38,099 bases of DNA from an uncultured Dehalococcoidales bacterium (GCA_964401175.1 CAYNXN010000001.1:1-38099); one strand, 5' to 3'. Positions 1,981 to 38,099 are shown, numbered from the stretch's first letter. Notes: generated from the letters alone by a model not told the origin. A program made the numbers and translations.

Positions 1981-1986
1981 AATGCC

Positions 1987-3357
1987 CTACCTGATGGCGG
2001 CGCCCGGGTTCAGTATGTTGTTTGGATCGAACAGCTTCTTGATACCGCGCATGATCTCTTCTTGCTTGGGGTCCATTAGCAGGGCGAGATACTTCAATCG
2101 TATCTTGCCGACGCCATGCTCCCCGGTCACCACGCCACCCAACTTGATGGCAGCCTCATAGATCGCCTGCTTCACCTCTTCGGCCGTGCCTCGTTCAACG
2201 AGTTCCTTGAGCATGTACGGGTGGAAGTTCCCGTCGCCCGCATGCGCGATGGTGAATATCTCCGTGTCGTATTTGGCCGCGATGTCATCGAGTGCATCGA
2301 GCATCTTACCGAGGCTCGCAGGAGGAACGGTGATGTCGGAGTCGCCGGCGATGAGCGGCTTCATCGCAGAATACACCTCACTGCGTATCTTGAGAATGTC
2401 CGCCTGCTCTTGCTGTCGCTCGGCGATAAGTACGTTGACGGCCCCGTTGTTCTGACAGACCTCGGACATCGTCTCCGCCTGGAAGTACACGTCATCCTCG
2501 TTGGCGCCTGCAAGAATCAGGATCAGGTGCGCGATTCCGGTCTGCGCCGGCCATTTCATGCCGAGATTGTCCGCCGACATCGTGATGACCTTGTGATCTA
2601 CATACTCGATGGCCATGGGTATCACGCCGCTCTGCAGTATCTTCGGTACGGTGTTGATCGCCTTGTGACGATCGTCGAAGGACACCACCAGCGTGGCGGT
2701 CCCCGCGAACTTTGGATAAAGACGCATGGTCGCTTTGGTGATTATTCCAAGAATCCCTTCACTGTCAATCAGCAACTGCATGAGGTCGAGACCGGTGTTG
2801 TTCTTGAGCAGCTTGCCGCCCATGGTTGTGATCTCGCCGGTAGGGAGAACCACCTCCATGCCCTTGACGTACTGCCGCACGACTCCGTACTTGACCGCGC
2901 GCGAGCCGCCGGCATTCGCGGCGATCATGCCACCAACCTGAGCGCCTTCGTCGCCGGGATGCGGCGGAAACAACAGATTGGCTTTGTCGACCGCCTCAAG
3001 CAGTTGCGCCAGCGTAACTCCAGCCTGAGCAACCACCATCAGGTTCTCAGTGTCGACCTCCTCCACCTTATCGAAGCGTTCCATGGACAGGACGATGCCG
3101 TCCTGCGTAGGCACCGCACCGCAAACGAGGCCGGTCCCGGCGCCGCGCGGATAGACCGGCGTCTTGTCACGGTTTGCCAGCTTGAGAATCTCGGAGATCT
3201 CCTCAGACGTCCCTGGCTTGACCACAACCACGTGCTCCGCCGGTTCCAGCCGCTGCGCCGCTGTGGTCTCGTCATATAGATACGTCTGCATCTGGGCCCG
3301 ATCAGTGATGACCCAATCCGGCCCGACGATAGCTTTAAGACCCTCGACATCAATCAT
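1987..3357 (-). CDS. FAD-linked oxidase / D-2-hydroxyacid dehydrogenase, GlcD family (paralog 1)
   Basis: Track ORF is 1987..3381. I trimmed the start to ATG 3357 because AAGGAGGA lies 9 nt upstream and the paralogs start at the equivalent residue (MIDVEGLKAIVGPDW). FAD_binding_4 and FAD-oxidase_C blocks are present: YPRGAGTG, NAGGSRAVKYGVVRQYV, GKLLKNNTGLDL, HAGDGNFHP, GEHGVGK. Confidence 0.85.
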   Translation of the reverse strand: MIDVEGLKAIVGPDWVITDRAQMQTYLYDETTAAQRLEPAEHVVVVKPGTSEEISEILKLANRDKTPVYPRGAGTGLVCGAVPTQDGIVLSMERFDKVEEVDTENLMVVAQAGVTLAQLLEAVDKANLLFPPHPGDEGAQVGGMIAANAGGSRAVKYGVVRQYVKGMEVVLPTGEITTMGGKLLKNNTGLDLMQLLIDSEGILGIITKATMRLYPKFAGTATLVVSFDDRHKAINTVPKILQSGVIPMAIEYVDHKVITMSADNLGMKWPAQTGIAHLILILAGANEDDVYFQAETMSEVCQNNGAVNVLIAERQQEQADILKIRSEVYSAMKPLIAGDSDITVPPASLGKMLDALDDIAAKYDTEIFTIAHAGDGNFHPYMLKELVERGTAEEVKQAIYEAAIKLGGVVTGEHGVGKIRLKYLALLMDPKQEEIMRGIKKLFDPNNILNPGAAIR

Positions 3358-3422
3358 GGTAGTGCTTCCTCCTTGTTCCAATCAGTGTCGTTCCGTGCTG
3401 TTATCTCTATGCTGCGCCCGGG

Positions 3423-4793
3423 CTACTTCACCGCCGAGTCAGGACTGAGTATGTGGTTCGGGTCGAACAGGTGCTTCAGTCCGCGCATCAGCTCAAGCGA
3501 CCTGGCATCGATGCACATATCCAGTTCGGCCAGCCTGGTCTTTCCGATGCCGTGTTCCCCGCTGATGACGCCGCCCAACTCGATGGCTTTGGCGTATATC
3601 TTGCGCTTCACCTCGGTCGCCAGCCCCCGTTCTTTCAATTCGAGCATAAGGTGCGGGTGGAAGTTGCCGTCCCCGGCATGTGCCACCATCGGGATTCTGG
3701 TCTTGTACTGCGCCGCAAGAGTGTCCACCACATCCATCATGTCGCCAACCGCAGCCGGCGGAACCGTAACGTCGAGTATCTCCGCCAGTTCCGCTTTGTA
3801 GGTCATGCTCTCCTCGCTGCGTATCCGCAGTATGTGTGCCTGTTCCTCCCGGCTCTCAGCCATAAGCGTGTCGACCGCGCCGCTGGCTTCGCAGACCTCA
3901 GAGATCTGCTGGCATTGTTCGTAGACATCGTCTTCATTCGTACCAGTGACGATCACAATCAGATGCGACCTGCCTTTCGTCGCCGGCCAGGTTGTGCCCA
4001 GATACCGGGCGGTGTCCTCCATCAGATCGCGGTCGACGTATTCGATCGCCATCGGGATGACTCCCGCCTGGAGTATCCTCGGGACGGCTCGAATCGCAGC
4101 ATGGCGGTCATCGAACGACACCACCAGGGTGGCCGGTCCTGCGAACTTCGGATAGAGTCTGAGTACCACCTTGGTGATGATGCCCAGGATGCCTTCACTG
4201 TCAATCATCAGATGCATCAGGTCCAGGCCGGTGTTGTTCTTGAGCAGCTTGCCGCCCATGGTGATGATCTCCCCGGTGGGCAGCACCACCTCGAGGCCCT
4301 TAACGTAGTTCCGAACCACGCCGTATTTGACGGCCCTGGTACCTCCGGCGTTGCACGCCACCAATCCACCGAGCTGCGCCCCTTCATCTCCCGGGTGAGG
4401 TGGAAACAGCAGTCCGCGTGATTCCACCGCCTCCAGCAACTGGGCCAGTGTTACCCCGGCCTCGGCAACAACCATCAGGTTCTCGCTGTCAACCTCAAGC
4501 ACCTTATCCAGACGCTCGAGGGACACGATGACTCCATCACGTGTAGGGATGGACCCCGCGCACACCCCGGTGCCTCCTCCACGCGGATAGATGGGGAAGG
4601 AATCCTCGTTCGCCAGCTTCACCACCCGCGCGATCTCATCGGTGTTTGCCGGTTTGACCACGACAACCCGGTCGGCTGGCCGCATGATGAGACCGGTGTA
4701 CGTCTCATCCACCAGGTATCTGGCCATCTGCTCGCGGTCTGTGACGACCCAATCCTCGCCCACAATGTCCTTCAATCTGCCGACATCAAACAT
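3423..4793 (-). CDS. FAD-linked oxidase / D-2-hydroxyacid dehydrogenase, GlcD family (paralog 2)
   Basis: 456-aa ORF with the same blocks as paralog 1: YPRGGGTG, NAGGTRAVKYGVVRNYV, HAGDGNFHP, GEHGIGK. GGAGAGGAG lies upstream of the ATG. Confidence 0.85.
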   Translation of the reverse strand: MFDVGRLKDIVGEDWVVTDREQMARYLVDETYTGLIMRPADRVVVVKPANTDEIARVVKLANEDSFPIYPRGGGTGVCAGSIPTRDGVIVSLERLDKVLEVDSENLMVVAEAGVTLAQLLEAVESRGLLFPPHPGDEGAQLGGLVACNAGGTRAVKYGVVRNYVKGLEVVLPTGEIITMGGKLLKNNTGLDLMHLMIDSEGILGIITKVVLRLYPKFAGPATLVVSFDDRHAAIRAVPRILQAGVIPMAIEYVDRDLMEDTARYLGTTWPATKGRSHLIVIVTGTNEDDVYEQCQQISEVCEASGAVDTLMAESREEQAHILRIRSEESMTYKAELAEILDVTVPPAAVGDMMDVVDTLAAQYKTRIPMVAHAGDGNFHPHLMLELKERGLATEVKRKIYAKAIELGGVISGEHGIGKTRLAELDMCIDARSLELMRGLKHLFDPNHILSPDSAVK

Positions 4794-4834
4794 GTACAGA
4801 ATTCTCCTCTCCAGGGATTAGTCGTCTCGAAGCC

Positions 4835-5995
4835 TCAGATGGTTGGACCAACAGTATAGATGTTGGAATTGACACCGGACGAATCGTACTGCAGCAGTTC
4901 TGCCTTGACTGCCTCACCCGAGAACACGCGGAGAACCGCGTCAAACACGCGCGAGCCCGCCGATTCGACCGTCTCTATGCCGGAAACGATGTTGCTGACG
5001 TCAAGATCGATGTACTCAGAGAGCAACTGGCACGTATGGGCGTTACCTGACACCTTGATGACCGGCGCGAGCGGAAAGCCTTGCGGCGCGCCGATGCCAG
5101 TGGAGAAGAGCATCACCTGGCAGCCGGCCGAAGCAAGACCCGTCAGGAACTCCATCTCACGTCCCGGCGAGTCCATGAAGTACAACCCGGGTGCCGGCGG
5201 GCGTTCGCCGTAGCGCACGACGCCGGTGATGGGACAGGTGCCCGACTTCACTATCGCACCAAGTGATTTCTCCTCGATTGTCGTCAATCCGCCGCGTATG
5301 TTGCCCTCGGTCGGCTGCCCTCCGCGCATATCAACACCCATGACACTTGCCCGGGCTTCCATGGCGTTGACGCAATCGAGGAGCTTCCCGGCCACCTCGG
5401 CCGTGGCCGCACGACGCACAAGGATGTGTTCCGCGCCGATCACCTCGGTTGTCTCACCGAATATAACCGTGGCTCCCGCCTGGACCAGCCTGTCCGCAGC
5501 ATTTCCCACCGCCGTATTCGATGCGAGTCCTGAGGTGGTGTCCGATGCACCGCACTTGACCCCGATCACAAGTTCCCGCAGCGAAGCCTCACGTCCTGTG
5601 GAGTCGAGGCCCGATGCAAAGCGACGTGCCGCCTCAAGGCCGTGGGCGACTGCGCGGGTAATGCCACCAACGGCCTGGACCCGCACAAGAGAAATCGGTT
5701 TGTGTGCTTCCACGGCGGCGACGATGTCCTCGGCAGTCACCGACTCGCAGCCCAGGCTGACCAGAACCACAGCAGCCACATTCGGATTAAGGCAGATGCC
5801 GGTGAGCGCATCGGTGACCAGCTTGACGTCAGTCGGCAACTGACAACAACCCTGGTGGTGCAGCATCGGCCGCGCCTCGGGAACGCTGGCGGCGATCCTG
5901 CGTGCGACTTCATTGACACAGCCCACCGTGGGAATCACCGCAACGTAGTTGCGTGCTCCCGCCGGTCCGGTACTGCGCGCAAAACCGTGCAACAT
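4835..5995 (-). CDS. UxaA-family (altronate/galactarate-type) dehydratase, large catalytic domain only, no SAF domain
   Basis: Track ORF is 4835..6034 (GTG). I prefer ATG 5995 because GGAGGTG lies 4 nt upstream. The protein starts directly in the GD_AH_C-type domain: ARNYVAVIPTVGC...HHQGCCQ...VSLGCES...GVKCGASDTTSG...GNIRGGLTTIEEKSLGA. Confidence 0.8.
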   Translation of the reverse strand: MLHGFARSTGPAGARNYVAVIPTVGCVNEVARRIAASVPEARPMLHHQGCCQLPTDVKLVTDALTGICLNPNVAAVVLVSLGCESVTAEDIVAAVEAHKPISLVRVQAVGGITRAVAHGLEAARRFASGLDSTGREASLRELVIGVKCGASDTTSGLASNTAVGNAADRLVQAGATVIFGETTEVIGAEHILVRRAATAEVAGKLLDCVNAMEARASVMGVDMRGGQPTEGNIRGGLTTIEEKSLGAIVKSGTCPITGVVRYGERPPAPGLYFMDSPGREMEFLTGLASAGCQVMLFSTGIGAPQGFPLAPVIKVSGNAHTCQLLSEYIDLDVSNIVSGIETVESAGSRVFDAVLRVFSGEAVKAELLQYDSSGVNSNIYTVGPTI

Positions 5996-6035
5996 CGCAC
6001 ACCTCCATCGAATCTGATTCAGAATCGTTGCCACC

Positions 6036-7412
6036 CTACGGAATGGCAGTGCCGGGATTGAGGATGCCGTTCGGATCGAACAACCGCTTCAGGCCGCGCA
6101 TCAACTCGATCGACTTATCGTCCAGACACAGGGGCATCTCCTTGAGGCGTATCTTGCCCACGCCATGTTCGGCCGTGATCACACCGCCGAGTGCGGCTGC
6201 CGCGGCGTAGAGCTCCCGCTTCACCGCCTGCAATTGACCCCTGTCATGCAGCTCCAGAGGCAGATGCGGATGCAGGTTGCCATCGCCGGCGTGTCCATAG
6301 GTGATGATGCGCGTTCCATACTTTCGGCCAATTTCATCGACGGTATCCAGAAAACCCGCGATGTCGGCGGGCGGTATCGCCATGTCAAGAACGTCCGCAA
6401 CGCGTGGTTTCAGCACGGGATACAGCTCACTTCGTATCTTGAGGATGTCCGCCTGTTCTTCCCGTGTCTCGGCCATCACAGTGTCCACGACACCGAGGGT
6501 TTCACACACCTTCAGGACATCAGAGGCCTGCTGGTACACGTCATCGTCGCTACTACCCGTGATGATGGCGATGAGGTGAGCGGTACCCTTCCGCGCCGGC
6601 CATTGCTTTCCAAGATGGGCGGCGGAAATCTCTATGACGTCTCTCTCAACGTACTCCAGCGCCAGTGGAATGACGCCTGTCTGCAGTATCTTCGGCACGG
6701 CTTTGATTGCCGCATGCCGGTCATCGAAGGAGATCACGAGGGTTGCCGTGCTGGCGGACCTGGGATAGAGCCTGAAAACGACCTTCGTGACTATTCCCAG
6801 CACGCCTTCGGAATCGATCATGAGATGCAGCAGGTCAAGTCCAGTGTTGTTCTTCAACAATTTGCCGCCCATGGTGATGATCTCGCCAGTCGGCAGCACA
6901 ACTTCCAGACCCTTGACGTACTGTCGAACAACGCCGTACTTGACGGCGCGAGTGCCGCCGGCATTGCAGACCACAAGGCCTCCCAGTTGAGCTCCCTCGT
7001 CGCCAGGATGCGGTGGAAAGGAGAGACCAACCGCTTCGACAGCACGCAGCAGCTTGTCCAGCGTCGCACCGGCCTCTGCGACCACCATGAGGTTGTCGGT
7101 GTCGACTTCGAGAATGCGGTCAAGACGCTCCAGAGAAAGCACGATCCCGCCGCGGGTCGGCACCGCCGCTCCGACGCATCCCGTACCACCTCCGCGCGGG
7201 ACCACAGGAACGAGCCGACGGTTTGCCATTCGCATGATTTGTGAGATCTGCTCGGCGTCGGCCGGCTTGACCACCACCACATCGTCGCCCGGGACGGGGC
7301 AGACCGGCAGCGCGGTCACATCCAGCAGGTACGATTGCATCGCTTCACGTTCGGTCACCACCCAATCCGGCCCGACGATTTCTCTCAGCTCAGCAAGCAC
7401 TTCGTTGTTCAC
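6036..7412 (-). CDS. FAD-linked oxidase / D-2-hydroxyacid dehydrogenase, GlcD family (paralog 3)
   Basis: Track ORF is 6036..7433. I trimmed the start to GTG 7412 because AAGGAGGA lies immediately upstream and the N-terminus (MNNEVLAELREIVGPDW) then aligns with the paralogs. Blocks: VPRGGGTG, NAGGTRAVKYGVVRQYV, HAGDGNLHP, AEHGVGK. Confidence 0.85.
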   Translation of the reverse strand: MNNEVLAELREIVGPDWVVTEREAMQSYLLDVTALPVCPVPGDDVVVVKPADAEQISQIMRMANRRLVPVVPRGGGTGCVGAAVPTRGGIVLSLERLDRILEVDTDNLMVVAEAGATLDKLLRAVEAVGLSFPPHPGDEGAQLGGLVVCNAGGTRAVKYGVVRQYVKGLEVVLPTGEIITMGGKLLKNNTGLDLLHLMIDSEGVLGIVTKVVFRLYPRSASTATLVISFDDRHAAIKAVPKILQTGVIPLALEYVERDVIEISAAHLGKQWPARKGTAHLIAIITGSSDDDVYQQASDVLKVCETLGVVDTVMAETREEQADILKIRSELYPVLKPRVADVLDMAIPPADIAGFLDTVDEIGRKYGTRIITYGHAGDGNLHPHLPLELHDRGQLQAVKRELYAAAAALGGVITAEHGVGKIRLKEMPLCLDDKSIELMRGLKRLFDPNGILNPGTAIP

Positions 7413-7830
7413 CTGTCCTCCTTGATCACCCACGCACTAACCCGGCTCGCGAACCCGCTGCCACTACGCAGCAGGCCGGAATGCGTTCGAGGAAGGGAAA
7501 TGTCCGACGGGAGCGATGGGACCGTCGCCGCCACAAACCAGTGGCAGAGCCGGCGAGAAGCCAGTAGCAGAACGACCGGGAGCGGCCCTGGCGGTAGAAC
7601 GATGGCGCGCCGTTCAGTGGAATCAAGTGACTGATCTCCTGCCGCGACGCGAGGAGCCGTCCGGCCGATGCGTGCCAAGGGACAAGGTGTCCTGCGTCCG
7701 GTCAGGCGAATTCTACACTTCCATGCCGACCTTTGGTATACCGCACACATGTGAGACGGCGCTGTGAACGACCTTGACGCTCGCGATAACTCGATGCTAC
7801 TCTTGCGAAATCAGTTCCGAGTCACAGGGC

Positions 7831-25038: not shown

Positions 25039-25707
25039 ATGGGGACCGTTGCCTGTCTCTTCAGGCCGATGGCCGAGGCCGACATCCCGCAGGTCTATGC
25101 CATCGACCACGAAGCCTTCCCCGCCGAGTCGCTCTTCCGTCCCTACTCCAGCTACGGTCGTGAATTGCAGAACGCCATGGCGCACTACGTCGTCGGCTGC
25201 GTGCCCTGCAACCGGCGCACGAAAGAGCTCAAACGGGCCTGGGCTCGCCGTCTCCTCGCCGCGTTGCATGATGCGTCGGGTCAGCATGCCATGCCTGCCG
25301 AACTGCTGGTTGGCTTCGCGGGCTTCTGGATGATGCTCGACGAGGCTCACATCATTGCCATCGCTGTGCGAGACCCCTTCCGCGGCCAGGGCATAGGCCA
25401 GGGATTGCTGCTCTCCGTCGTCGATATGGCGGCCAAATTGCAGGCCGATGTCGTGACGCTTGAGGTTCGCGAAAGCAACCATGTGGCGCGTGAGATGTAC
25501 CTCAAGTTCGGTTTCCGGGTGGTTGGGGACAGACCGCGCTACTACTCGGACAATCAGGAGACTGCCGTCCTCATGAGTCTGGAGAGGCTGCAGTCACACG
25601 AGACGCAGGCGCAACTCGCCCGCCTGAGAAGCGAGCTTCTCTGCCGAGAATGCCTCGCCCAGCCCATCACTGTTCCGGACGAGATACTGGCGGAAACGCT
25701 TGACTAG
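25039..25707 (+). CDS. rimI: GNAT N-acetyltransferase, RimI-like (ribosomal-protein-alanine acetyltransferase)
   Basis: IRPMAEADIPQVYAIDHEAF, IIAIAVRDPFRGQGIGQGLL (acetyl-CoA Q/RxxGxG/A loop), TLEVRESNHVAREMYLKFGF. The start is uncertain: GTG 25012 in the track or ATG 25039. Confidence 0.75.
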   Translation: MGTVACLFRPMAEADIPQVYAIDHEAFPAESLFRPYSSYGRELQNAMAHYVVGCVPCNRRTKELKRAWARRLLAALHDASGQHAMPAELLVGFAGFWMMLDEAHIIAIAVRDPFRGQGIGQGLLLSVVDMAAKLQADVVTLEVRESNHVAREMYLKFGFRVVGDRPRYYSDNQETAVLMSLERLQSHETQAQLARLRSELLCRECLAQPITVPDEILAETLD

Positions 25708-26837
25708 CGGTACTTGTCCAGGGTGTCCTGGAAGGCTTGAACTACCTGCTCCAGCTGCTCGCGACTGGCCGCAAACGTCGAGAGTTCGAGCGCTTTGGTC
25801 TGACCGGGCTTGATGCCCCAGATGCCGCGTGTCTCCATCTCCTTGTAGAGATAGTAGCCCCGCTCCCTCACTCGCTGCGAGATGTCGTACAGGGCAGTGG
25901 TCTCAAACACCATCAGGTCGTGTCGATGTGGTTTCTCACCGAGCTGTCGAAAACCGAGTGACTCCATGGCCGTGGAGAACCACTGCGCTTTGGCCACCTG
26001 TTCATCCCAGTGATTCACTCTCTCGACCACGGCCGGGAACGAGGCCATCAACGTGGCCAGGGTCACGCCACGAATCGTGCAGCCGAGGCATTCAATCTCC
26101 TTCGTCTTGTGCAGGGCCGAGCGGCGCAGCACCATGTCCTGCCACTTCGCCCTCATGCCCAGGACACCTGATGGACCGGCGGCAGCCATACTCTTATGAC
26201 CGCTGCCGATGATGAAATCGGCGTGCAGCGCAGACATCTTCACCGGCATGCGGCCCACCGCGTAGGCGCCGTTTATGACGTACGGCACCTCGTGCTGCGC
26301 GCAGATCTCACCGAGACGGGCGGCATCAGCCAGGTTCCCGAACCGGCCATCCGGATATGTCAGTATGACGAGACTCGGCCTGTGCTCACGGATGAGAGGC
26401 TCATACAACTCAACGTCGATGACGTAGCCAGGGTGGCCGGAGTTGGCCACCGGAATCAGCTCCACGCCAACCCGTTCCGCCGCCACAGCCGTGCTGTAGT
26501 GCCGGTTGCCATCAACCAGCACGGTGTCGCCCGGCTTCGCAAGCGAGTGAATGATCATGAACATGCCATCACGAGCGCCGTAGGTAAGGGTGGCGCTATC
26601 GCTGCCAAGAAACTCCGGAAGAAGCTCCGTGACGAACTGCCGTACAGGGGGGTTCGGGATATCAACGAGCCTGCCCTGACAGAAGTCGCAGATGGAATAG
26701 CCATCACCGAATTCAACCAGTGCGCTCCGTGCCGCCTCGGTCAGAATGCTCCCCGTCTGCAGCGGCATGACGTTGATCATGTCGCGGTGCGGGCGGCTGA
26801 GGGTCGTCAGCTTGTCAAGGTCAGCCTGCTGTGCCAT
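25704..26837 (-). CDS. pscS: O-phospho-L-seryl-tRNA:Cys-tRNA synthase (SepCysS)
   Basis: 377 aa, collinear with archaeal SepCysS. INVMPLQTGSILTEAAR, DGYSICDFCQGRL (Cys pair), GNRHYS, INGAYAVGRMPV, GSGHKSMAAAGPSGVL (PLP Lys), ECLGCTIRG (third Cys). The start overlaps the sepS stop by 17 nt. Confidence 0.88.
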   Translation of the reverse strand: MAQQADLDKLTTLSRPHRDMINVMPLQTGSILTEAARSALVEFGDGYSICDFCQGRLVDIPNPPVRQFVTELLPEFLGSDSATLTYGARDGMFMIIHSLAKPGDTVLVDGNRHYSTAVAAERVGVELIPVANSGHPGYVIDVELYEPLIREHRPSLVILTYPDGRFGNLADAARLGEICAQHEVPYVINGAYAVGRMPVKMSALHADFIIGSGHKSMAAAGPSGVLGMRAKWQDMVLRRSALHKTKEIECLGCTIRGVTLATLMASFPAVVERVNHWDEQVAKAQWFSTAMESLGFRQLGEKPHRHDLMVFETTALYDISQRVRERGYYLYKEMETRGIWGIKPGQTKALELSTFAASREQLEQVVQAFQDTLDKYR

Positions 26838-28365
26838 CGCCTTCTCCAGACTGGTGGACAGGTTGAATGGTTATGGTCACAAACATCCCGCCACCGATTC
26901 CGATCTTTTTCTGCTGTCGCTCGATATGCTGTCTGACCGCATCAGGCAGTTCGAGATTCAAGTCAGACAGATGCCTGACCATCTTAACCTGATACTCCTG
27001 TGGTGCGGTCGCCTCCTCCGCCAGCGCTGCCGCAGCCAACGAGACCCCGCGCATATAGTTATAACCGGTGTAGACCTCGCATGCTTCCAGGGCGCTCACC
27101 ACGGTGCCGTCTTTCACGCACAACTCATTGAAGCCCGCCGGTCCAACCAGCTTCTTGCCGGCCTCACGCTCGACCAGGTGGACCTCAACCCGGTTGTCCT
27201 TGAAAGCGATGAAATCGCAGGGAGCCATCTCATCCTTGTGTTTGCGGGCGCTGCCTTCAATAGCTCTGGCGATCTTCAACCCGCGTTCTGTCCTGGGCGC
27301 GGAGATGGGTGCAAGCGCCTCAGCGATGTCACGGTCGGAGAGGTCGACGATTGAGAACTGCGGAAAGACCAGCTTTCGGATGTCGTCAGCGCCATGGAGA
27401 ATCATAGCCAGACGTTCCATACCCATGCCCGCGTTGAACACAGGATAGCGGATGTCGAAGTTCGCCAGCGCGACAGGCGAGTACATGCCGATATCAGCCA
27501 CTTCAAGCCACTGGCCGCGGTACTTAACGAAGACCTCTTCCTCCAGCCCGGGCGTGTAGTACTTCGAGGTAGCAGTCTTCGTCTCGAAGCGCGTGTCCTC
27601 GAAGCCATAGTCCCGCAGGACATCGGATGTGATGGCGCGACCCGCCTCCAGCGACATCTCCGGGTCCATAATCACGATCGAGGCGGAGTGATGCACCCGG
27701 AGGTGGTGGGCGTCCTCACGCTGTTCGTTGCGATACCGCGGTCCAACCGCAAACAACGCGACGGGAAGCGTCGCCTTGTCCTGCAGCGCAGCGAGCGTGT
27801 GGAACCAGGTGGCAGTCATGTGGCTACGCAGCGTCTTGTCCGTGGAGATGGGCTTCAGATTGTACAACTCAGGAAACACGCGGTGAACGATCTCCGTAGC
27901 CTGCGTGTCCTCCAGGCCGAGACGCTTCATCAGTACCTCGATGAGGTCGTCAGCCTCGATGTCGCCGCGTTTGTAGGAGCGCAGGATGCCCCCAAGCTCA
28001 TCTACGTTAACCGCATGTCCGACTATCTTCTCGATCTGTGCGATGCGTTGTGCGCTGACTCCGATCTCCGGCCTCGGCAACTGCGCCAGGTAGAAGGCGC
28101 GGTCCAGAATGACAAGGGCCTCGGGGCCGTACTGACGGGTGACGTCGGCATCAGGCAGTATCGTCAGATTCTCCGCTTCATCGAAACCGCGAGCCAGCAG
28201 TATCTCGCGAGACCGCTGCATCAGGTCCCGCAACGGATGTGGGCGCCCCTTGGATGGCAGCCGAATCGTCGTGTTGCGCGGGACCATGTCAGCGGTCGCC
28301 AGCCAGGTCGCGACGAAGTCCGCCTTCGAGTTCTTGCGGATAGATGAGATGTCAAATACTGCCAT
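26821..28365 (-). CDS. sepS: O-phosphoseryl-tRNA(Cys) synthetase (SepRS)
   Basis: 514 aa, collinear with methanogen SepRS as I remember it. HPLRDLMQRSREILLARGFDE, QYGPEALVILDRAFYLAQLPRPEIGVS, TLRSHMTATWF, LFAVGPRYRNEQ, HHSAS, SKYYTPGLE, WLEVADIGMYSPVAL, GMGMERLAMIL, and C-terminal VRHLSDLNLELPD. Confidence 0.9.
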   Translation of the reverse strand: MAVFDISSIRKNSKADFVATWLATADMVPRNTTIRLPSKGRPHPLRDLMQRSREILLARGFDEAENLTILPDADVTRQYGPEALVILDRAFYLAQLPRPEIGVSAQRIAQIEKIVGHAVNVDELGGILRSYKRGDIEADDLIEVLMKRLGLEDTQATEIVHRVFPELYNLKPISTDKTLRSHMTATWFHTLAALQDKATLPVALFAVGPRYRNEQREDAHHLRVHHSASIVIMDPEMSLEAGRAITSDVLRDYGFEDTRFETKTATSKYYTPGLEEEVFVKYRGQWLEVADIGMYSPVALANFDIRYPVFNAGMGMERLAMILHGADDIRKLVFPQFSIVDLSDRDIAEALAPISAPRTERGLKIARAIEGSARKHKDEMAPCDFIAFKDNRVEVHLVEREAGKKLVGPAGFNELCVKDGTVVSALEACEVYTGYNYMRGVSLAAAALAEEATAPQEYQVKMVRHLSDLNLELPDAVRQHIERQQKKIGIGGGMFVTITIQPVHQSGEGDGTAG

Positions 28366-28885
28366 TGATGCGTGCTCCCTCTAGTGCGCAGCATTGTAAC
28401 AGATACTCACGAACAAGAAGGAGGGCGGCATGAACTGCCGCATCCTTGTTCGCGTTCCGTGAACCATTGAAGACATGCCGAAAGGCGCGGACGTCACCCG
28501 GAGTGGCGAGACCGAGATAGAATAGTCCAACCGGCTTGGCCGCGCTGCCCCCACCAGGACCCGCGATTCCAGTGTCTGCGATGCAGATGGTAGCAGTGAG
28601 TGCCTTCCTTCCTCCAGCCGCCATTTCGCACGCCACCTCGTGGCTCACCGCTCCATGGCGCCTGAGGGTCGATCGCCTCACATTGAGGAGATGGTTCTTC
28701 GCCTCATTGCTGTATGCCACGACGCCACCAAGGAAATAGGCGGAGGCGCCTGCCACGTCTGTGAGACGGTCGGCAATCCGCCCGGCTGTGGCCGACTCGG
28801 CGGTCGCGATGGTGACAAACCCGTGACCGCTTTCTTGCAGTCGCGACTGCAGTTCGGCGATCTCGGCGGGCAGGTTCTCATCCAT
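28352..28885 (-). CDS. pncC: CinA C-terminal domain protein / NMN amidohydrolase (PncC-like)
   Basis: TIATAESATAGRIADRLTDVAGASAYFLGGVVAYSNEAK, HGAVSHEVACEMA and ADTGIAGPGGGSAAKPVG match PncC/YgaD. The track ORF starts at 28927, but alignment to PncC favours ATG 28885 (MDENLPAEI...). The stop overlaps the sepS start by 14 nt. Confidence 0.8.
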   Translation of the reverse strand: MDENLPAEIAELQSRLQESGHGFVTIATAESATAGRIADRLTDVAGASAYFLGGVVAYSNEAKNHLLNVRRSTLRRHGAVSHEVACEMAAGGRKALTATICIADTGIAGPGGGSAAKPVGLFYLGLATPGDVRAFRHVFNGSRNANKDAAVHAALLLVREYLLQCCALEGARINGSI

Positions 28886-29051
28886 GAATGTGTCCACGAG
28901 CCGGCACTGACCCATTGTAGCCCGCATTACCAGGAAACGTAAGTGCGCGGAACGGAGGAATCACTTCGTCCCGGACTTAGACAACCGGTGTGGACTACGG
29001 AAACCGAGCGGGGCATACTGCGCTGCATGGAGAGGGACAAAGAAATAGGAA

Positions 29052-29173
29052 CCCCCTGGCAACGGCATATTTTCCCGGAGAGTTGCCCCTCGAGTATCGT
29101 CTGCGCTGGAGCGTTTCACTTCCGTGTTCGGGATGGGAACGGGTGGGTCCGCTCCGCTCCAGTCACCAAAGGG
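29052..29173 (-). rRNA. rrf: 5S ribosomal RNA, not linked to 23S/16S
   Basis: Minus strand reads CCCUUUGGUGACUGGAGCGGAGCGGACCCACCCGUUCCCAUCCCGAACACGGAAGUGAAACGCUCCAGCGCAGACGAUACUCGAGGGGCAACUCUCCGGGAAAAUAUGCCGUUGCCAGGGGG. It has a 12-bp closing helix I (CCCUUUGGUGAC/GUUGCCAGGGGG), helix II GGAGCG/CGCUCC, the universal CCGAACACGGAAGUGAAAC loop-C region, and helix IV CGAGGGG/CUCUCCG. Ends are +/- a few nt. Confidence 0.85.
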
Positions 29174-29217: not shown

Positions 29218-29988
29218 GTGGAAGCAGCAACAGTGGAAGAACCGACACCCAGTGAATGCCGGTCCGGTTATTTCGTCGGCTGCAGTGGCTGGCACTATCC
29301 TGATTGGCGAGGCATCTTCTATCCTCCGGGCATGCCGGCCTCTCGATGGCTCTCGTACTACAGTCAGACGTTCAACACGGTCGAGATTAACACCAGCTTC
29401 TACAGTCTGCCAAAGGCCTCCACTGTCGACACCTGGCGAAACTCCGTGAGCGGAGCATTCCTCTTCGCAGTGAAAGGCAGTCGATTCATCACGCACGTCA
29501 AGCGGCTCGCCGTCGACGGCGCGACGATTGAGAAGTTTACGACGCAGGTATCAGGCCTTAACGACAGACTCGGGCCGGTGCTCTGGCAATTGCCGCCGTC
29601 ACTGCATCGCGATGCAGCGCGCCTGGAATCGTTTCTCTCGCGACTCCCTGCACAGGTGCGACATGTTGTGGAGTTCCGGCACGAGTCATGGTGGTATGAG
29701 GAAACGTATGACCTGCTGCGCGCACACCGTGCCGCGATCTGCCTCATCGACAGTCCCGTGTTCCGGTCGCCGCTGGTGAGGACCACGGATCTCGTCTACA
29801 TCAGATTTCACGGCGCCAGCCAGATGTACAGCGGACCGTATCCGGCTACAAGGCTGCGGCAGTGGGCCACCAACCTCCGCGGCATCGCTGATGCGGGAAC
29901 CAGTCTCTTTGCTTACTTCAACAACGACGTCGGCGGCCACGCCATCAACGACGCTCTCCAGTTTCGAGAGCTGCTAGCCGCTCCTTAA
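29203..29988 (+). CDS. DUF72 (UPF0759, YecE-like) family protein
   Basis: YFVGCSGWHYPDWRGIFYP, FNTVEINTSFYSLP, FAVKGSRFITH, VLWQLPPS, VEFRHESWW, YIRFHG. The start is uncertain: TTG 29203, GTG 29218 or GTG 29233. The family usually starts a few residues before GxxGW. Confidence 0.8.
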   Translation: MRTAQVEAATVEEPTPSECRSGYFVGCSGWHYPDWRGIFYPPGMPASRWLSYYSQTFNTVEINTSFYSLPKASTVDTWRNSVSGAFLFAVKGSRFITHVKRLAVDGATIEKFTTQVSGLNDRLGPVLWQLPPSLHRDAARLESFLSRLPAQVRHVVEFRHESWWYEETYDLLRAHRAAICLIDSPVFRSPLVRTTDLVYIRFHGASQMYSGPYPATRLRQWATNLRGIADAGTSLFAYFNNDVGGHAINDALQFRELLAAP

Positions 29989-31798
29989 GCGCACGCGCCA
30001 CCGGGAGTGGGATTCGTCCTGTCTCGGAGATATGGCTGGCAGTCGCCGCCCTCAGCGCCTCCAGCGTGCCGAAGGCAAACAGCAGGGTACGCCTGCGTCG
30101 CGGACCGATGCCGAGAACCGATTCCAGCACTGAGGCCAGCCCGGCCGTGGTCCGCAACTGCCGATGGTAGGATACCGCGTAACGATGCGCCTCATCTCGC
30201 ACCGCCTGCAGGAGCAGTAGTCCCTGACACCCTGAGGCAAGACTTGCCGGCGTACGTGAACCTTCCACATAGACCAGCTCGAACTCCTTCGCCAGGCTGA
30301 CCATCGGAATCTCCAGCGTGCCAGACTCGGCGCGGGCGGCGAGCGCCGCAGCGAGTTGTCCGCGTCCGCCGTCGATCAGTATCAGCGACGGAACAGCGCT
30401 CCAGCGACGGCCCGTCCCTTGATTGTTACCTGCCAGCCGGGTCAGCCTGCGGCGAAGCACCTCGTGCAGCATCGCATAGTCGTCCTGTCCCGTGACGCCG
30501 CGAATTCTGAAGCGGCGATATTCAGAGGGGCGTGGAATCCCGTCCTCAAAGACCACCATACTGCCCACCGGCATAGCCCCCTGGATGGTGGAGATATCGA
30601 AGCCTTCGATGCGACGTGGCACGGATGGCAGAGCAAGAACCTGCTTGAGCTCCGCCAGCGCATCCTCTCTCGAGCCGTGCCCTCCACTCGTGAAACGCGT
30701 CGCGGCGAGCTGCCTGGCGACACCGTCGGCGAGGTTGTTAACAAGTTGTCTCTTCACACCGGAACGTGGCGACAGCAGCGTGACCGGCCTTCCGCGACGC
30801 CCCGACAACCAGGTTGCGATCAGCCTCGCATCAGAGACCGGATGCTGCAACATGACCAGCGGCGGGGTGCTGGCGGCGGTCGAATAGAAGTCAAGTACAA
30901 AGCTGCGCAGCACTTCTTGAGGCGCGAGCTCCGCGGCATTTGTCAGGGGAAACACCTGGCGCTCCCGTACTCTGCCCTCCCTCACCGAAAGTACGCCGAC
31001 GAGCGCGGAGGCGCCGTCCTGGGCCAGCGCCAGGATATCCTGATCGCCTCGGAGCGCAGTCACTGCAGCATACTGCTCCGTCACCAGCTCGACGGCCCTG
31101 ATTCTATCCCGCACTACTGCGGCGCGTTCGAAATCGAGGGCGGCAGCGGCCTGCTTCATCTCCTGGGTCAGCGAATCAAGCACATCTTTGTGACGCCCCT
31201 GCAGAAACATGATGATGCGGTCAATAGTCTGGCGGTATTCCTCCCGGGTCACGGCGCCAACGCAGGGGCCGGGACACAGCCCCATGTCCTTGTTGAGACA
31301 GGCACGCTTGCGGTCAAGCGGCAACGGGCCGGTGCATTCGCGGAAGCGAAACATCTTGCGTATCGTTCGCAGTGTCTGCCGCATCGAGCGGGCGCTGGCG
31401 TATGGTCCAAAGTACTCCGCTCCATCGTCAAGCCTTCTGCGGGTTACCGCGATCCAGGGCCAATCCTGCGCCAGATCGATCTTCAGATAGGGGAAGCTCT
31501 TATCGTCTTTCAGCCGCGCGTTGTACTGCGGTCTGTACCTTCGAATCAGATCCGCTTCCAGCACCAGCGCTTCCTGCTCGTTGCCGGCAAGCACGTACTC
31601 CACATCGGCCACCTGCTCAATCAGGCGGAGAACTTTAGTACTCAGGCCTGACTTGGAGCCGAAATAGCTTCGTACCCGGCTGCGGAGGTTGGCCGCCTTG
31701 CCCACGTAGATGACGCAGCCAGTTACATCCCGGAACAGATACACACCCGGTGAACCAGGCGCAAGGTCGACCTTCTGCCGTACGTATTCAGCTACCAT
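29945..31798 (-). CDS. uvrC: excinuclease ABC subunit C
   Basis: The track ORF (810 aa, to 32377) is extended by read-through antisense to xerD. The real start is ATG 31798 (MVAEYVRQKVDLAPGSPGVYLFRD...VIYVGKAANLRSRVRSYF), giving the GIY-YIG domain, UVR domain, endonuclease V-like domain and C-terminal (HhH)2. 617 aa. Confidence 0.92.
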   Translation of the reverse strand: MVAEYVRQKVDLAPGSPGVYLFRDVTGCVIYVGKAANLRSRVRSYFGSKSGLSTKVLRLIEQVADVEYVLAGNEQEALVLEADLIRRYRPQYNARLKDDKSFPYLKIDLAQDWPWIAVTRRRLDDGAEYFGPYASARSMRQTLRTIRKMFRFRECTGPLPLDRKRACLNKDMGLCPGPCVGAVTREEYRQTIDRIIMFLQGRHKDVLDSLTQEMKQAAAALDFERAAVVRDRIRAVELVTEQYAAVTALRGDQDILALAQDGASALVGVLSVREGRVRERQVFPLTNAAELAPQEVLRSFVLDFYSTAASTPPLVMLQHPVSDARLIATWLSGRRGRPVTLLSPRSGVKRQLVNNLADGVARQLAATRFTSGGHGSREDALAELKQVLALPSVPRRIEGFDISTIQGAMPVGSMVVFEDGIPRPSEYRRFRIRGVTGQDDYAMLHEVLRRRLTRLAGNNQGTGRRWSAVPSLILIDGGRGQLAAALAARAESGTLEIPMVSLAKEFELVYVEGSRTPASLASGCQGLLLLQAVRDEAHRYAVSYHRQLRTTAGLASVLESVLGIGPRRRRTLLFAFGTLEALRAATASHISETGRIPLPVARALKERLAALETGERR

Positions 31799-31806
31799 GT
31801 AGTTCG

Positions 31807-31815
31807 ATTCTAACA
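31807..31815 (-). promoter_or_regulatory. putative extended -10 element for uvrC (leaderless-type spacing)
   Basis: Minus strand reads TGTTAGAAT, then 8 nt (CGAACTAC), then the uvrC ATG. No SD. Confidence 0.4.
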
Positions 31816-31849
31816 AGGTCCCTCCATGGCAGCAAAAGCAGATGCCCTG

Positions 31850-31858
31850 TGCTACAAT
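31850..31858 (+). promoter_or_regulatory. putative extended -10 element for xerD (leaderless-type spacing)
   Basis: TGCTACAAT, then 9 nt (GAGAACCCC), then ATG 31868. No SD. Confidence 0.4.
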
Positions 31859-31867
31859 GAGAACCCC

Positions 31868-32722
31868 ATGAAGCAGGAGATTGCTGCTTTCCTCGAACAC
31901 ATCGTTCAATCGCGTGGCGCGTCCCAGAATACGGTGTCGGCGTACCACAACGATCTGACGCAACTGGCCGAGTTCCTCGAGTTGGAACAGGCAAAGGGGA
32001 TACTCTCCTCGCGTGAGGAACTGCTGCTCGCCTACCTGGTGCACCTCAAGGGGAAGGGTTACTCGCCGGCAACTTCTGCACGGAAGGTCGCTTCGGCACG
32101 GTCGTTCTTCAAGTACCTGGTCGACAGCGGCAAGCTCAAGGAGAACCCGATTCGTAACTTGATGAGCCCGCCCGTCAACAAGAAGGCGCCGCGGGTGCTC
32201 AGTCCGAGTGAGTATGCCAGCCTGTTGGCGGTGCCACAAGCGTTGTCCACGCCCGAGGCGCGCCGGGATGTGGTCATGCTGGAGTTGCTCTACGCCACCG
32301 GGCTGCGTGCCAGCGAGGTCGTGTCCATCCAGATGAACGACGTCGATCTCGAGCACGCGACCCTGATGTGCCGGCACGGCAAGTCACAGCGGCAGATACA
32401 TCTCTCAGCTGAGATATGCCACCTGGTGCGCGACTACATCGACAACGCCCGGCTTGATCTGCTCTACAACGAGCGAGAGACCGCACTGTTTCTGAATCGG
32501 CGCGGACACCAGCTCACCCGCCAGGGTTTCTGGCAGATTGTGAAAAACTACGCCACAAGAGCGGGCCTTGGCGACCGGGTCACTCCGCACACGCTGCGGC
32601 ACACTTTTGCGGTGCGCAAAGTGCAGAGCGGAGCTGATCTGCGCTCCCTGCAGCAGGCTCTTGGTCACGCGTATATCTCAAGCACACGTGTGTATAAGCA
32701 ACCTCTGTCTACGGTGAAGTGA
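31868..32722 (+). CDS. xerD: XerC/XerD-type tyrosine site-specific recombinase
   Basis: N-terminal SAM-like domain (FLEHIVQSRGASQNTVSAYHNDLTQLAEFL). Catalytic residues in ELLYATGLRASE (R), TPHTLRHTFA (H-x-x-R), LGHAYISSTRVY (H...Y). The track start 31826 would include the putative promoter, so ATG 31868 is preferred. The XerD versus XerC assignment is tentative. Confidence 0.8.
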   Translation: MKQEIAAFLEHIVQSRGASQNTVSAYHNDLTQLAEFLELEQAKGILSSREELLLAYLVHLKGKGYSPATSARKVASARSFFKYLVDSGKLKENPIRNLMSPPVNKKAPRVLSPSEYASLLAVPQALSTPEARRDVVMLELLYATGLRASEVVSIQMNDVDLEHATLMCRHGKSQRQIHLSAEICHLVRDYIDNARLDLLYNERETALFLNRRGHQLTRQGFWQIVKNYATRAGLGDRVTPHTLRHTFAVRKVQSGADLRSLQQALGHAYISSTRVYKQPLSTVK

Positions 32723-33655: not shown

Positions 33656-33669
33656 CTGTTGAGGAGAAG

Positions 33670-33743
33670 TGCCCCCAAGGGGATTCGAACCCCTGATCTC
33701 CAGCTTGAAAGGCTGGCGTCCTTGGCCTCTAGACGATGAGGGC
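33670..33743 (-). tRNA. tRNA-Glu (anticodon UUC), no encoded CCA
   Basis: Minus strand: GCCCUCA UC GUCU AGAGGCCAA GGAC G CCAGC CUUUCAA GCUGG AGAUC AGGGG UUCGAAU CCCCU UGGGGGC A. This is a full cloverleaf with a U5-G68 wobble in the acceptor stem. 74 nt. Confidence 0.92.
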
Positions 33744-36222: not shown

Positions 36223-36297
36223 GCGGGCGTAACTCAGCGGTAGAGTTCCTGCTTCCCAAGCAGGCTGTCGCGGGTTCGAATCCCGTCGCCCGCTCCA
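36223..36297 (+). tRNA. tRNA-Gly (anticodon CCC), CCA encoded
   Basis: GCGGGCG UA ACUC AGCGGUA GAGU U CCUGC UUCCCAA GCAGG CUGUC GCGGG UUCGAAU CCCGU CGCCCGC U CCA. The U73 discriminator is the bacterial GlyRS identity type. Confidence 0.93.
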
Positions 36298-36433: not shown

Positions 36434-38099
36434 ATGACAACATGTCTTCGGTCCAGGCGAATCATTGCGTTGCTGCTCGCGGGGATACTGACCATCCTCC
36501 CGGCTGTCTCCTGTGGCCCCGTTGGAGAACTGCTTGCCCCTGGCAACGAGACGCAACCCGCCAGTCAGGCTGGCTCTCCCTCGCCCCGGCCCCCACGTCC
36601 AAGCGGCACTATCGCTGTAGGGCCAACCACGGTGGTTGCATCACAGGTGCTGGGACAAGACGGCGGCAGCATCACGGTGAGTAACCCCGGAGCGCCCCTC
36701 GACGGACTGACCCTGAACGTGCCCCAGGGCGCCTACTCGACTTCATTTCAGGTGAATGTGTCGTTTGCACCTGTTTCCGGCCATTCATTCGGCGAGCACT
36801 TCAATCCGGCCACACCGCTCATAAGCATCGAAAACGGCGGTCAATTTGCGGCAGAGTTCATGACCCTGACAATACCCGTCGATATCCCTGACGACCACTT
36901 CGCCATGGCCTTCTACTACGATGACGAGACGGGGACCCTTGAGGGCATCCCCTCATCGACACAGGACAGCGGTTCAATCACCGTCGTCACGCGCCACTTC
37001 AGCAAGCTGCTGGTGAGCATTATTAAGAACGACGTCCTCGGCGACCTGCTCAAGAAGGGAATCGACTCGGGATTCCGTCCAGGAGCTGATGATTGGCAGT
37101 TCACCAATTACGGGTCATACATTGCCCCCGGCGGCCATTGTGCCGGTCAGTCGGTCAGTGCGATGTGGTACTACTGCGAGAAGCCGGACGGCGAGGATCC
37201 GTTCTTGTGGAATCTGTACGATAACAACGGAGACGAGCCCGCCACTCCCGATATGTGGGAGGACGATTCGCGTGGCTACCGGTTGGCATCTACGGTGCAA
37301 CACGACATCAACTGGGGCAAGTTCGAGGTTGATTTCCAGCGCCAGTTGCGCGGAACGCATGACGAGTACCATTTCAAAGCATTCGCCTATGCAATTCTGC
37401 TGACGGGTGAGCCACAGTACGTCGGGATATCCAGTACGGCTGGAGGCGGCCATGCCATGATCGCGTACCGGGCGGACAGCAAGGGCATCGACATCGCCGA
37501 TCCAAACTACCCCGGCAAGACGGATCGTAGAATCCTCTACAAGGACGGCCGGTTCACGCCCTACAACTCCGGCGCCAACGCGGATGAGATCGCGGCCGGG
37601 AACGGGAAGGCGTATGACCTCATCGGCTACATGGCGAAGACGGCGATTGTCGACTGGTCGCTGCTGTCCAGTCGCTGGGCGGAGTTTAAGGACGGCACCA
37701 TCGGCAACGACCGGTTCCCCGCGTATGAGATCACCACACTTGACGCTGAGGCCCGGGAAGTGCCGCTGGTGGATGGCCATGAGGCCGAATCAGACAAGCT
37801 CAGAATCAAGGTTCAGTCCACTGCCACGGCCCTCGGCACCAGGGTCTTGCGCAATGGGACGCGTCTTCCCTCGGACGAAGGCGGGTTCTATGAGCTTGTC
37901 GAGGGCAACAACCGGCTCGGCATCGACGTGTGGGGTGAAGTGGGCAGCGGCGCGCAGGCTTCGTGGGAGTACATCGATTTTCAGTACATCGACGTCTGGT
38001 ACGGCCCCAAGGAGACCACCGGCTGCAAGGGATGGGTCCTCGAGTCCGTGACTCCTGACTGGGCGCCCAAGGAGAAGAAGTGGGGCGACCAGTATGAGA
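36434..38099 (+). CDS. putative secreted lipoprotein with a papain-fold cysteine peptidase-like domain (3' end outside the window)
   Basis: Absent from the ORF track because there is no stop before the window end. My translation from ATG 36434 gives MTTCLRSRRIIALLLAGILTILPAVSCGP... (signal peptide plus lipobox-like AVSC), a Pro/Ser-rich linker, then ...WQFTNYGSYIAPGGHCAGQSVSAMWYY...STAGGGHAMIAYRADSKGIDIADPNYPG.... The frame stays open for 555 codons. Confidence 0.65.
   Translation, partial: MTTCLRSRRIIALLLAGILTILPAVSCGPVGELLAPGNETQPASQAGSPSPRPPRPSGTIAVGPTTVVASQVLGQDGGSITVSNPGAPLDGLTLNVPQGAYSTSFQVNVSFAPVSGHSFGEHFNPATPLISIENGGQFAAEFMTLTIPVDIPDDHFAMAFYYDDETGTLEGIPSSTQDSGSITVVTRHFSKLLVSIIKNDVLGDLLKKGIDSGFRPGADDWQFTNYGSYIAPGGHCAGQSVSAMWYYCEKPDGEDPFLWNLYDNNGDEPATPDMWEDDSRGYRLASTVQHDINWGKFEVDFQRQLRGTHDEYHFKAFAYAILLTGEPQYVGISSTAGGGHAMIAYRADSKGIDIADPNYPGKTDRRILYKDGRFTPYNSGANADEIAAGNGKAYDLIGYMAKTAIVDWSLLSSRWAEFKDGTIGNDRFPAYEITTLDAEAREVPLVDGHEAESDKLRIKVQSTATALGTRVLRNGTRLPSDEGGFYELVEGNNRLGIDVWGEVGSGAQASWEYIDFQYIDVWYGPKETTGCKGWVLESVTPDWAPKEKKWGDQYE

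Follow-up and report, generated by a model that had tools for sequence, protein, structure and literature searches.

A SepRS-SepCysS operon in Dehalococcoidia DNA and its probable role in tRNA-dependent cysteine formation

We analysed a stretch of 38,099 nucleotides (nt) from an uncultured Dehalococcoidales bacterium (GCA_964401175.1, CAYNXN010000001.1:1-38099; the whole stretch is called the window below), in which two adjacent genes, sepS and pscS, encode the enzymes SepRS and SepCysS. The analysis indicated, with a probability that we put at about 0.9, that the window is Dehalococcoidia (Chloroflexota) DNA with a sepS-pscS operon that is functional, was inherited vertically and serves to form cysteine on its tRNA. 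The bacterial SepRS-SepCysS operon is an already known system and the window holds an ordinary member of it, since Mukai et al. (2017; mBio 8:e00561-17, PMC5424206) described a shared bacterial operon in Chloroflexi, 'probably Dehalococcoides', and validated its enzymes by assay. The two open reading frames (ORFs) and their 17-nt overlap had been proposed in an original prediction made from the sequence alone, and the ORF listing and direct reading of the sequence placed them at the same positions; Shine-Dalgarno sites had been claimed as well, and Shine-Dalgarno-like sites were found 5' of both starts. The features of the operon (lengths in amino acids, aa) are as follows.

26821..28365, minus strand: sepS, O-phosphoserine--tRNA(Cys) ligase (SepRS) of the bacterial (Chloroflexota) clade, 514 aa, ATG start
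25704..26837, minus strand: pscS, SepCysS (Sep-tRNA:Cys-tRNA synthase), 377 aa, ATG start
26821..26837, minus strand: overlap of SepRS stop and SepCysS start, 17 nt, ATGGCACAGCAGGCTGA, from the SepCysS ATG through the SepRS TGA
28375..28381, minus strand: Shine-Dalgarno-like GAGGGAG, 9 nt 5' of the SepRS ATG (28365), from direct sequence reading
26847-26844, minus strand: Shine-Dalgarno-like GGAG, 6 nt 5' of the SepCysS ATG, within the end of the SepRS coding sequence

The family membership of both proteins is settled, because they are 44-51% identical to solved structures and pass the cut-offs of curated hidden Markov models. SepRS scored 434.6 bits with the NCBIfam equivalog model TIGR00470 (sepS; cut-off 380.65, E = 4.5e-130), in a match from residue 8 to 500 of the 514 and from position 7 to 530 of the 533 in the model, and the next-best model was pheS with 87 bits against its cut-off of 237. 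The class II aminoacyl-tRNA synthetase catalytic core, PF01409, was found at E = 9.7e-44. Among solved structures the best relative was the SepRS of Archaeoglobus fulgidus (2du3; E = 5e-115, 44% identity over 496 aligned residues), followed by the SepRS of Methanocaldococcus jannaschii (E = 2e-96, full-length) and of Methanococcus maripaludis, and then by PheRS alpha chains at E ~1e-13. The alignment to 2du3 reaches query residue 499 and chain residue 530, so that the domain for anticodon binding at the C-terminus is kept, which distinguishes the window SepRS from the SepRS-deltaC forms of some Parcubacteria. The motifs named in the original prediction (TLRSHMT, HHSAS, SKYYTPG, GMGMERLAMIL and VRHLSDLNLELP) are all present in the 514-aa translation.

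In the printed alignment, T184, S227, S229 and N311 of the window SepRS pair with Thr188, Ser231, Ser233 and Asn325 of the A. fulgidus enzyme (2du3), the residues of the phosphoserine pocket. Across 12 members of the SepRS clade, S227, S229 and N311 were invariant and T184 nearly so, and R212 and E214 of motif 2 aligned with A. fulgidus R216 and E218. The Asn-X-Gly motif, which separates true SepRS from degenerate SepRS-like proteins that lose it (PMC8762117), is intact as N311-A-G. With the pocket residues kept and pheS at 87 bits, the protein thus shows neither of the two properties, a PheRS alpha-like identity or loss of the phosphoserine-binding residues, that the original prediction had named as contradicting its assignment.

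The 377-aa protein was assigned to SepCysS with similar clarity, scoring 485.1 bits with TIGR02539 (cut-off 365.25, E = 1.3e-145) and 462.4 bits with the related model NF006810 (against 301), in comparison to about 31 bits with the SufS model (cut-off 475) and about 30 bits with cysteine desulfurases. These scores also dispose of the generic class V aminotransferase or cysteine desulfurase that had been envisaged as the alternative identity. The best solved relative was A. fulgidus SepCysS (2e7i; E = 1.4e-124, 51% identity), and the M. jannaschii enzyme matched over its full length at E = 7e-102. The motifs GSGHKSMAA, YSICDFCQG and ECLGCT, all predicted, are in the translation. K215 in GSGHKSMAA aligns with A. 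fulgidus K209 (Lys234 in M. jannaschii), the lysine that binds pyridoxal phosphate (PLP) (PMC5688128), and C50, C53 and C253 align with A. fulgidus C39, C42 and C247, the three conserved cysteines to which a part in persulfide and Fe-S chemistry is ascribed, which Chloroflexi SepCysS is known to keep (PMC5424206). R89, H113 and Y114 align with Arg79, His103 and Tyr104, the phosphate-binding triad of the A. fulgidus enzyme (PMC2330236). An extra cysteine, Cys250 (in ECLGCT; window 26088-26090, minus strand), stands three residues before Cys253; the published SepCysS of 'Alkali sediment b1' has it too (VECLGCT), and the other Chloroflexi sequences viewed read ELLGCT.

Comparison with the published bacterial system placed the window proteins well inside it. 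Bacterial SepRS is characterised by the loss of the helix after A. fulgidus Ile444, which reads N1-methylated G37 (m1G37) in tRNA-Cys, and by an Ile444 position that is 'mostly Asp'; bacterial SepCysS is characterised by the loss of loop 144-147 and by the lack of an 8-aa insert between 234 and 235 (PMC5424206). The window SepRS has an 8-aa deletion after the Ile444 position, where the m1G37-reading helix becomes a short loop, and the window SepCysS has a 4-aa gap at A. fulgidus 146-149 (as placed by HMMER; the A. fulgidus loop lies around 144-148), and is ungapped at 234/235, without the 8-aa insert. The three indel signatures of the Chloroflexi operon are thus all found in the window, as are its gene order, sepS then pscS, the three cysteines and the PLP lysine. 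In identity, the window SepRS stands at 79% to the 'Alkali_sediment_b1' SepRS from a soda-lake sediment metagenome (supplementary alignment of Mukai et al.) and at 59% to that of RBG_13_51_36, and for the 'Hot spring Yb1' pair, which was assayed, both SepRS and SepCysS show about 64% identity to their window counterparts. The differences from the published operon are small: a 17-nt overlap in place of a short spacer, the extra Cys250 (though it is also in 'Alkali sediment b1'), and Ala425 where Asp is usual, in a loop that has diverged locally and that two close relatives, P0121 and P0002, have in common with the window.

Relative to A. fulgidus SepRS (2du3) and SepCysS1 (2e7i/2e7j), the window proteins are collinear over their full length, with 44% and 51% identity and all mapped active-site residues conserved, but SepRS lacks the 8 residues after Ile444 and 10 residues within an insertion of its catalytic domain, SepCysS lacks 4 loop residues, and the host is a bacterium without Trm5-made m1G37 (PMC5424206). 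A later survey (Front Genet 2022, PMC8762117) distinguished four bacterial SepRS clades and considered that m1G37 is probably unused by the bacterial enzymes.

Where the m1G37-reading site used to be, the window SepRS has the loop VVSALEACE (residues 422-430; window 27070-27096, minus strand), against IYSDxxPSG in the family; an I/L/V-Y-S-D-x-x-P-S/T-G/E loop was found in 37 of the 39 other top-ranked relatives (P0002-P0040). Here the Ile444 position is Ala425, replacing the near-invariant Asp, and this alanine is common to P0121 and P0002. VVSALEACE itself recurs in the independent contig P0121 and partly in P0002, P0031 and P0035. A compensated frameshift or assembly error was considered as its origin and rejected, as the DNA aligned without gaps to the loci L001 and L002 with point changes only, and P0121 carries the same loop.

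The protein search returned 795 SepRS relatives at E <= 1e-10, and the best 120 of these were all at least 62% identical; the protein clusters at this level number more than 120. Where names were given, they were 'O-phosphoserine--tRNA ligase [Dehalococcoidia bacterium]' or '[Chloroflexi bacterium]' at NCBI and 'O-phosphoseryl-tRNA synthetase' at JGI, so that close relatives are already correctly named by NCBI and current annotation pipelines. A scan of 185,579 species-representative genomes, run with patterns specific to this clade of the operon, gave 111 confirmed matches, and the best 80 (loci with numbers beginning with L) were examined with flanks of up to 10 kb on each side, about 1 Mb in total. 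The results showed that 77 of the 80 loci were from Dehalococcoidia or Chloroflexota metagenome-assembled genomes (MAGs), two of them (L051 and L063) being the genomes RBG_13_51_36 and CG2_30_46_19 of Mukai et al.; the remaining three were MAGs of Methanosarcinales (L072), Desulfobacteraceae (L078) and Aenigmatarchaeota (L079). With this share, the pathway is common in Dehalococcoidia rather than sporadic. The original prediction had described it as reported only now and then in uncultured bacteria, Chloroflexi among them; the placement in Chloroflexi stood, and the sporadic occurrence did not.

In each of the 73 loci long enough to show it, SepCysS came after SepRS on the same strand, and in 68 of these it lay within about 230 nt; in the closest relatives (L001-L011 and L073) the two genes overlapped or were separated by gaps of <=25 nt. 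The 17-nt stop/start overlap in the window is a probable case of translational coupling, from which the two enzymes are likely co-translated. Searches with twelve window proteins (tblastn) showed that many Dehalococcoidia loci preserve the order argC-pcm-uvrC-DUF72-pncC-SepRS-SepCysS-rimI-pyrD-stomatin-NfeD-hisZ, the eleven neighbour genes standing in the same order down to about 60% SepRS identity. Dozens of Dehalococcoidia genomes contain all or parts of the fuller block argC-pcm-xerD-uvrC-DUF72-5S-pncC-SepRS-SepCysS-rimI-pyrD-stomatin-NfeD-hisZ. This conserved flanking order rules out a chimeric contig and favours vertical descent. The single fixed core-genome position (5S-pncC-sepS-pscS-rimI) in most recovered Dehalococcoidia loci suggests that the operon was acquired once, long ago, and then passed on vertically, rather than transferred repeatedly. 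The gene directly upstream of sepS is:

28352..28927, minus strand: pncC/CinA C-terminal-domain gene, whose stop overlaps the SepRS start by 14 nt

This gene matched PF02464 (CinA; E = 2.5e-49) and TIGR00199 (PncC_domain; 138 bits against a cut-off of 68.9), and most Dehalococcoidia loci have it upstream of SepRS, in the same orientation, with other genes interposed in several. It is a conserved neighbour of SepRS and is probably co-transcribed with the operon. On the other side, rimI converges on SepCysS and the two stops overlap by 4 nt, so that, together with the 14-nt overlap of pncC, the operon is physically interlocked with bacterial neighbours. A promoter and terminator scan of 25.4-29.4 kb gave counts near shuffle expectation and no usable signal.

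Some loci carry additional genes at these junctions. In one Dehalococcoidia subclade (L032, L036, L041, L046, L050, L054 and L058), three genes stand between pncC and SepRS (for example L036 1177-3231), namely a formate/nitrite-transporter-family gene (PF01226), a gene with a cyclic-nucleotide-binding (cNMP-binding) domain (PF00027) and a DUF4342 gene; a link of the first to sulfide supply is conceivable, because its family includes hydrosulfide channels. Between SepRS and SepCysS, genes are inserted in some genomes (L049 11674-15289, L025 11908-12864 and L039 11674-12615), one of them a cation-efflux transporter of the CDF family (PF01545). The L049 insert also holds a YeeE/YedE-type 'sulphur transport' protein (PF04143) and an enzyme resembling class V aminotransferases and cysteine desulfurases (PF00266), and these genes could reflect a link to sulfur delivery.

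The original prediction had further stated that no tRNA-Cys, cysS, SepCysE-like or SepCysSn-like ORF is visible in the 38 kb, and each of these absences was reproduced. For tRNA-Cys, ARAGORN and Rfam found only tRNA-Glu(UUC), tRNA-Gly(CCC) and 5S rRNA in the window. For cysS, nothing was found in the window by tblastn or by comparing its 30 large ORFs with NCBIfam, nor in the 80 loci by tblastn with an Escherichia coli CysS query, a result that is nearly uninformative as it covers about 1 Mb of flanks only; cysK and cysE were not seen among the window ORFs. For SepCysE, phmmer with the M. jannaschii (MJ1481) and Methanothermobacter thermautotrophicus sequences from the PMC5424206 supplement gave no match at E <= 10 in six-frame translations of the window and of the 80 loci, a search whose sensitivity is limited because the peptide is short and evolves quickly. 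A split SepCysSn gene would not fit before SepCysS, as the coding sequence of SepRS extends into the start of SepCysS, and there is no N-terminal SepCysSN fusion, as the protein has 377 aa in comparison to 371 aa for the adapter-less A. fulgidus enzyme and only about 10 residues more at the N-terminus.

The window thus shares the two catalytic enzymes and their chemistry with the transsulfursome of class I methanogens (SepRS-SepCysE-SepCysS, 5x6b/5x6c; PMC5688128), but differs from it in having no SepCysE match, no split SepCysSn and no fused N-terminal adapter. The missing adapter agrees with the published picture of an essentially archaeal adapter, in which the SepCysE family is mainly archaeal, with full-length SepCysE in archaea that encode selenocysteine, and SepCysSn mostly accompanies archaeal SepCysS, the exception being a single bacterial bin that is highly diverged (PMC5424206).

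The tRNA-Cys(GCA) genes that stand directly beside the operon were found only in L078 (9810-9886, Desulfobacteraceae) and L079 (4244-4314, Aenigmatarchaeota). The former has G37, U73 and an encoded CCA, and was called by ARAGORN but falls below the gathering score of the Rfam tRNA model, which suggests a dedicated, somewhat atypical tRNA-Cys.

In the mechanism we propose, SepRS, a class II enzyme related to PheRS and homotetrameric in solved homologs, would use ATP to attach O-phosphoserine (Sep) to tRNA-Cys(GCA). SepCysS, a PLP-dependent homodimer, would then remove the phosphate to give a dehydroalanyl-tRNA intermediate and add sulfur from a persulfide on its conserved cysteines, yielding Cys-tRNA-Cys. 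Both enzymes would be translated together through the 17-nt overlap, and no scaffold of the SepCysE type would take part. The tRNA partner is most likely an ordinary bacterial A37 tRNA-Cys (GCA, U73), presumably encoded elsewhere in the genome, because the helix with which m1G37 of archaeal tRNA-Cys is read is missing from SepRS. Such a scheme is consistent with in vitro work on the Chloroflexi enzymes, in which recombinant SepRS charged G37- and A37-type tRNA-Cys to 35-60% and SepCysS converted 30-60% of Sep-tRNA to Cys-tRNA, the latter enzyme also being active in E. coli; both activities have therefore been shown for enzymes about 64% identical to those of the window (PMC5424206). Some points weigh against the proposal of a functional operon. 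That these very proteins are active is inferred, as are the partner tRNA and the donor of the sulfur; no tRNA-Cys was found in the flanks, up to 10 kb on each side, of any Dehalococcoidia locus, which leaves the substrate tRNA unseen; and the SepRS loop is atypical in reading VVSALEACE, with Ala425 for Asp, so that tRNA recognition could differ in detail.

Other readings of the locus were weighed against this one, and the most serious concern the role of the enzymes and not their identity. In the first of them, which we judge to have about an even chance, a canonical CysRS is also present and SepRS-SepCysS serves mainly for de novo cysteine synthesis, as in methanogens with both systems. Cultured Dehalococcoides encode cysS, which speaks for such redundancy, and the lack of cysK and cysE among the window ORFs is compatible with a biosynthetic role of the operon. 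Organisms that have both SepRS and CysRS use the indirect route mainly for cysteine biosynthesis (PMC8762117). Against a redundant role, cysS was seen neither in the window nor in the 80 loci, with the small weight noted above, and the operon sits in a core syntenic block across the class, a position that an essential role fits at least as well. Somewhat less probable, though a serious candidate, is that the organism is without CysRS and without a synthase for free cysteine, so that SepRS-SepCysS makes all its cysteine and charges all its tRNA-Cys. The strong conservation of both genes at a fixed position in 77 Chloroflexota species genomes, the intact catalytic sites and the absence of cysS, cysK and cysE from the 38 kb favour a sole route, but 38 kb is a small fraction of a genome, and the published accounts consulted are silent on CysRS in SepRS-bearing Chloroflexi.

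Two further readings would change the identity of the proteins or of the DNA. Thermoplasmata and putative Deltaproteobacteria have SepRS-like proteins whose pockets are altered (PMC8762117), and the architecture of SepCysS is that of the fold type I, class V aminotransferases, so a degenerate SepRS-like enzyme with another amino-acid specificity, or a generic desulfurase or aminotransferase that does not act on tRNA, was considered; we regard it as very improbable, since the Asn-X-Gly and Thr/Ser/Ser phosphate-binding positions are intact, the specific equivalog scores exceed those of pheS and SufS by more than 340 bits, and the two genes are coupled as an operon across the clade. PheRS alpha and the class V cysteine desulfurases (SufS/IscS/NifS) share folds with the window proteins (PF01409; fold type I PLP, PF00266), but with scores far below their family cut-offs they are superfamily relatives only. 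Slighter still is the chance that the contig is archaeal, or a chimeric assembly of an archaeal operon and bacterial flanks. The nearest solved structures are archaeal, and a few archaeal MAGs, L072 and L079, carry the same operon clade; in the window, however, the GC content is flat at 0.60-0.62 across the operon and its junctions, pncC and rimI overlap the operon genes, and the same flanking order was independently assembled in dozens of Dehalococcoidia MAGs from different studies. The bacterial markers uvrC, xerC/D, rimI, a short HisG with a hisZ-like gene, and a tRNA-Gly with U73 and encoded CCA point the same way, and the archaeal or chimeric origin that the original prediction had allowed for was thus not borne out. 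Its list of bacterial flanks was recovered almost as given (uvrC, rimI, NfeD, stomatin, 5S and tRNA-Gly with U73), with xerD becoming XerC/D-type and hisZ becoming hisZ-like.

Overall, the window is housekeeping DNA. It begins with larA, three glcD-like oxidases, guaA, purD-E-B-C, an aldolase, pfkA, hisB-C-D-G and a hisZ-like gene (whose best model is hisZ, with a score below the cut-off); it continues with NfeD, a stomatin/Band-7 protein, pyrD, rimI, SepCysS, SepRS, pncC/CinA-C and 5S rRNA; and it ends with DUF72, uvrC, a xerC/D-type recombinase, pcm, tRNA-Glu, argC, a homocitrate/isopropylmalate-synthase-like gene and tRNA-Gly. The short HisG accompanies the hisZ-like gene. Further features are:

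29054-29170, minus strand: 5S rRNA (Rfam)
31826-32722, plus strand: XerC/D-type tyrosine recombinase (PF00589 and PF02899)
33669-33743, minus strand: tRNA-Glu(UUC) (ARAGORN/Rfam)
36223-36297, plus strand: tRNA-Gly(CCC), U73, encoded CCA

An ORF of 810 aa for uvrC (29945-32377, minus strand) was rejected as over-extended, since the UvrC match starts near residue 200 and the extra N-terminal ~190 residues are antisense to the real xerC/D gene. The 5S rRNA is an isolated gene, the window containing neither 23S nor 16S, and lies between DUF72 and pncC, ~125 nt upstream of pncC and on the same strand as pncC-SepRS-SepCysS. Each of the six Dehalococcoidia loci examined for it (L001 9177-9293, L003 9084-9200, L008 9111-9227, L017 8183-8299, L037 8762-8878 and L043 8234-8350) has such a 5S in the same position, and the unlinked 5S is therefore a conserved trait of the lineage. 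At the start of the window, 718-7433 (minus strand) encodes a LarA-type nickel-pincer racemase (its score falls slightly short of the equivalog cut-off), three paralogous GlcD-like flavin adenine dinucleotide (FAD) oxidases and a galactarate-dehydratase-like protein, which may form a 2-hydroxyacid utilisation module. At its end, an open frame of at least 499 aa (36602-38098, plus strand) runs off the 3' end of the contig, with no Pfam match at E <= 1e-4.

The operon as it stands is the correct annotation of a published system. What is added here is a modest gain over that system: the fixed position of the operon in most recovered Dehalococcoidia loci, and the observation that tRNA-Cys is never linked to the operon in the Dehalococcoidia flanks covered, yet is linked to it in the Desulfobacteraceae and Aenigmatarchaeota relatives. 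A more far-reaching picture, which we hold to be rather doubtful, is that the operon is the only route to cysteine and Cys-tRNA in the lineage, in genomes with no cysS, cysK or cysE, having been fixed early in a core housekeeping block and acting without a scaffold on A37 tRNA-Cys through the remodelled VVSALEACE loop. If this were true, a widespread bacterial class would be wholly dependent on a pathway that is still usually described as archaeal, and if CysRS is lacking in these abundant subsurface bacteria, both their sulfur assimilation and their translation would hinge on SepRS-SepCysS.

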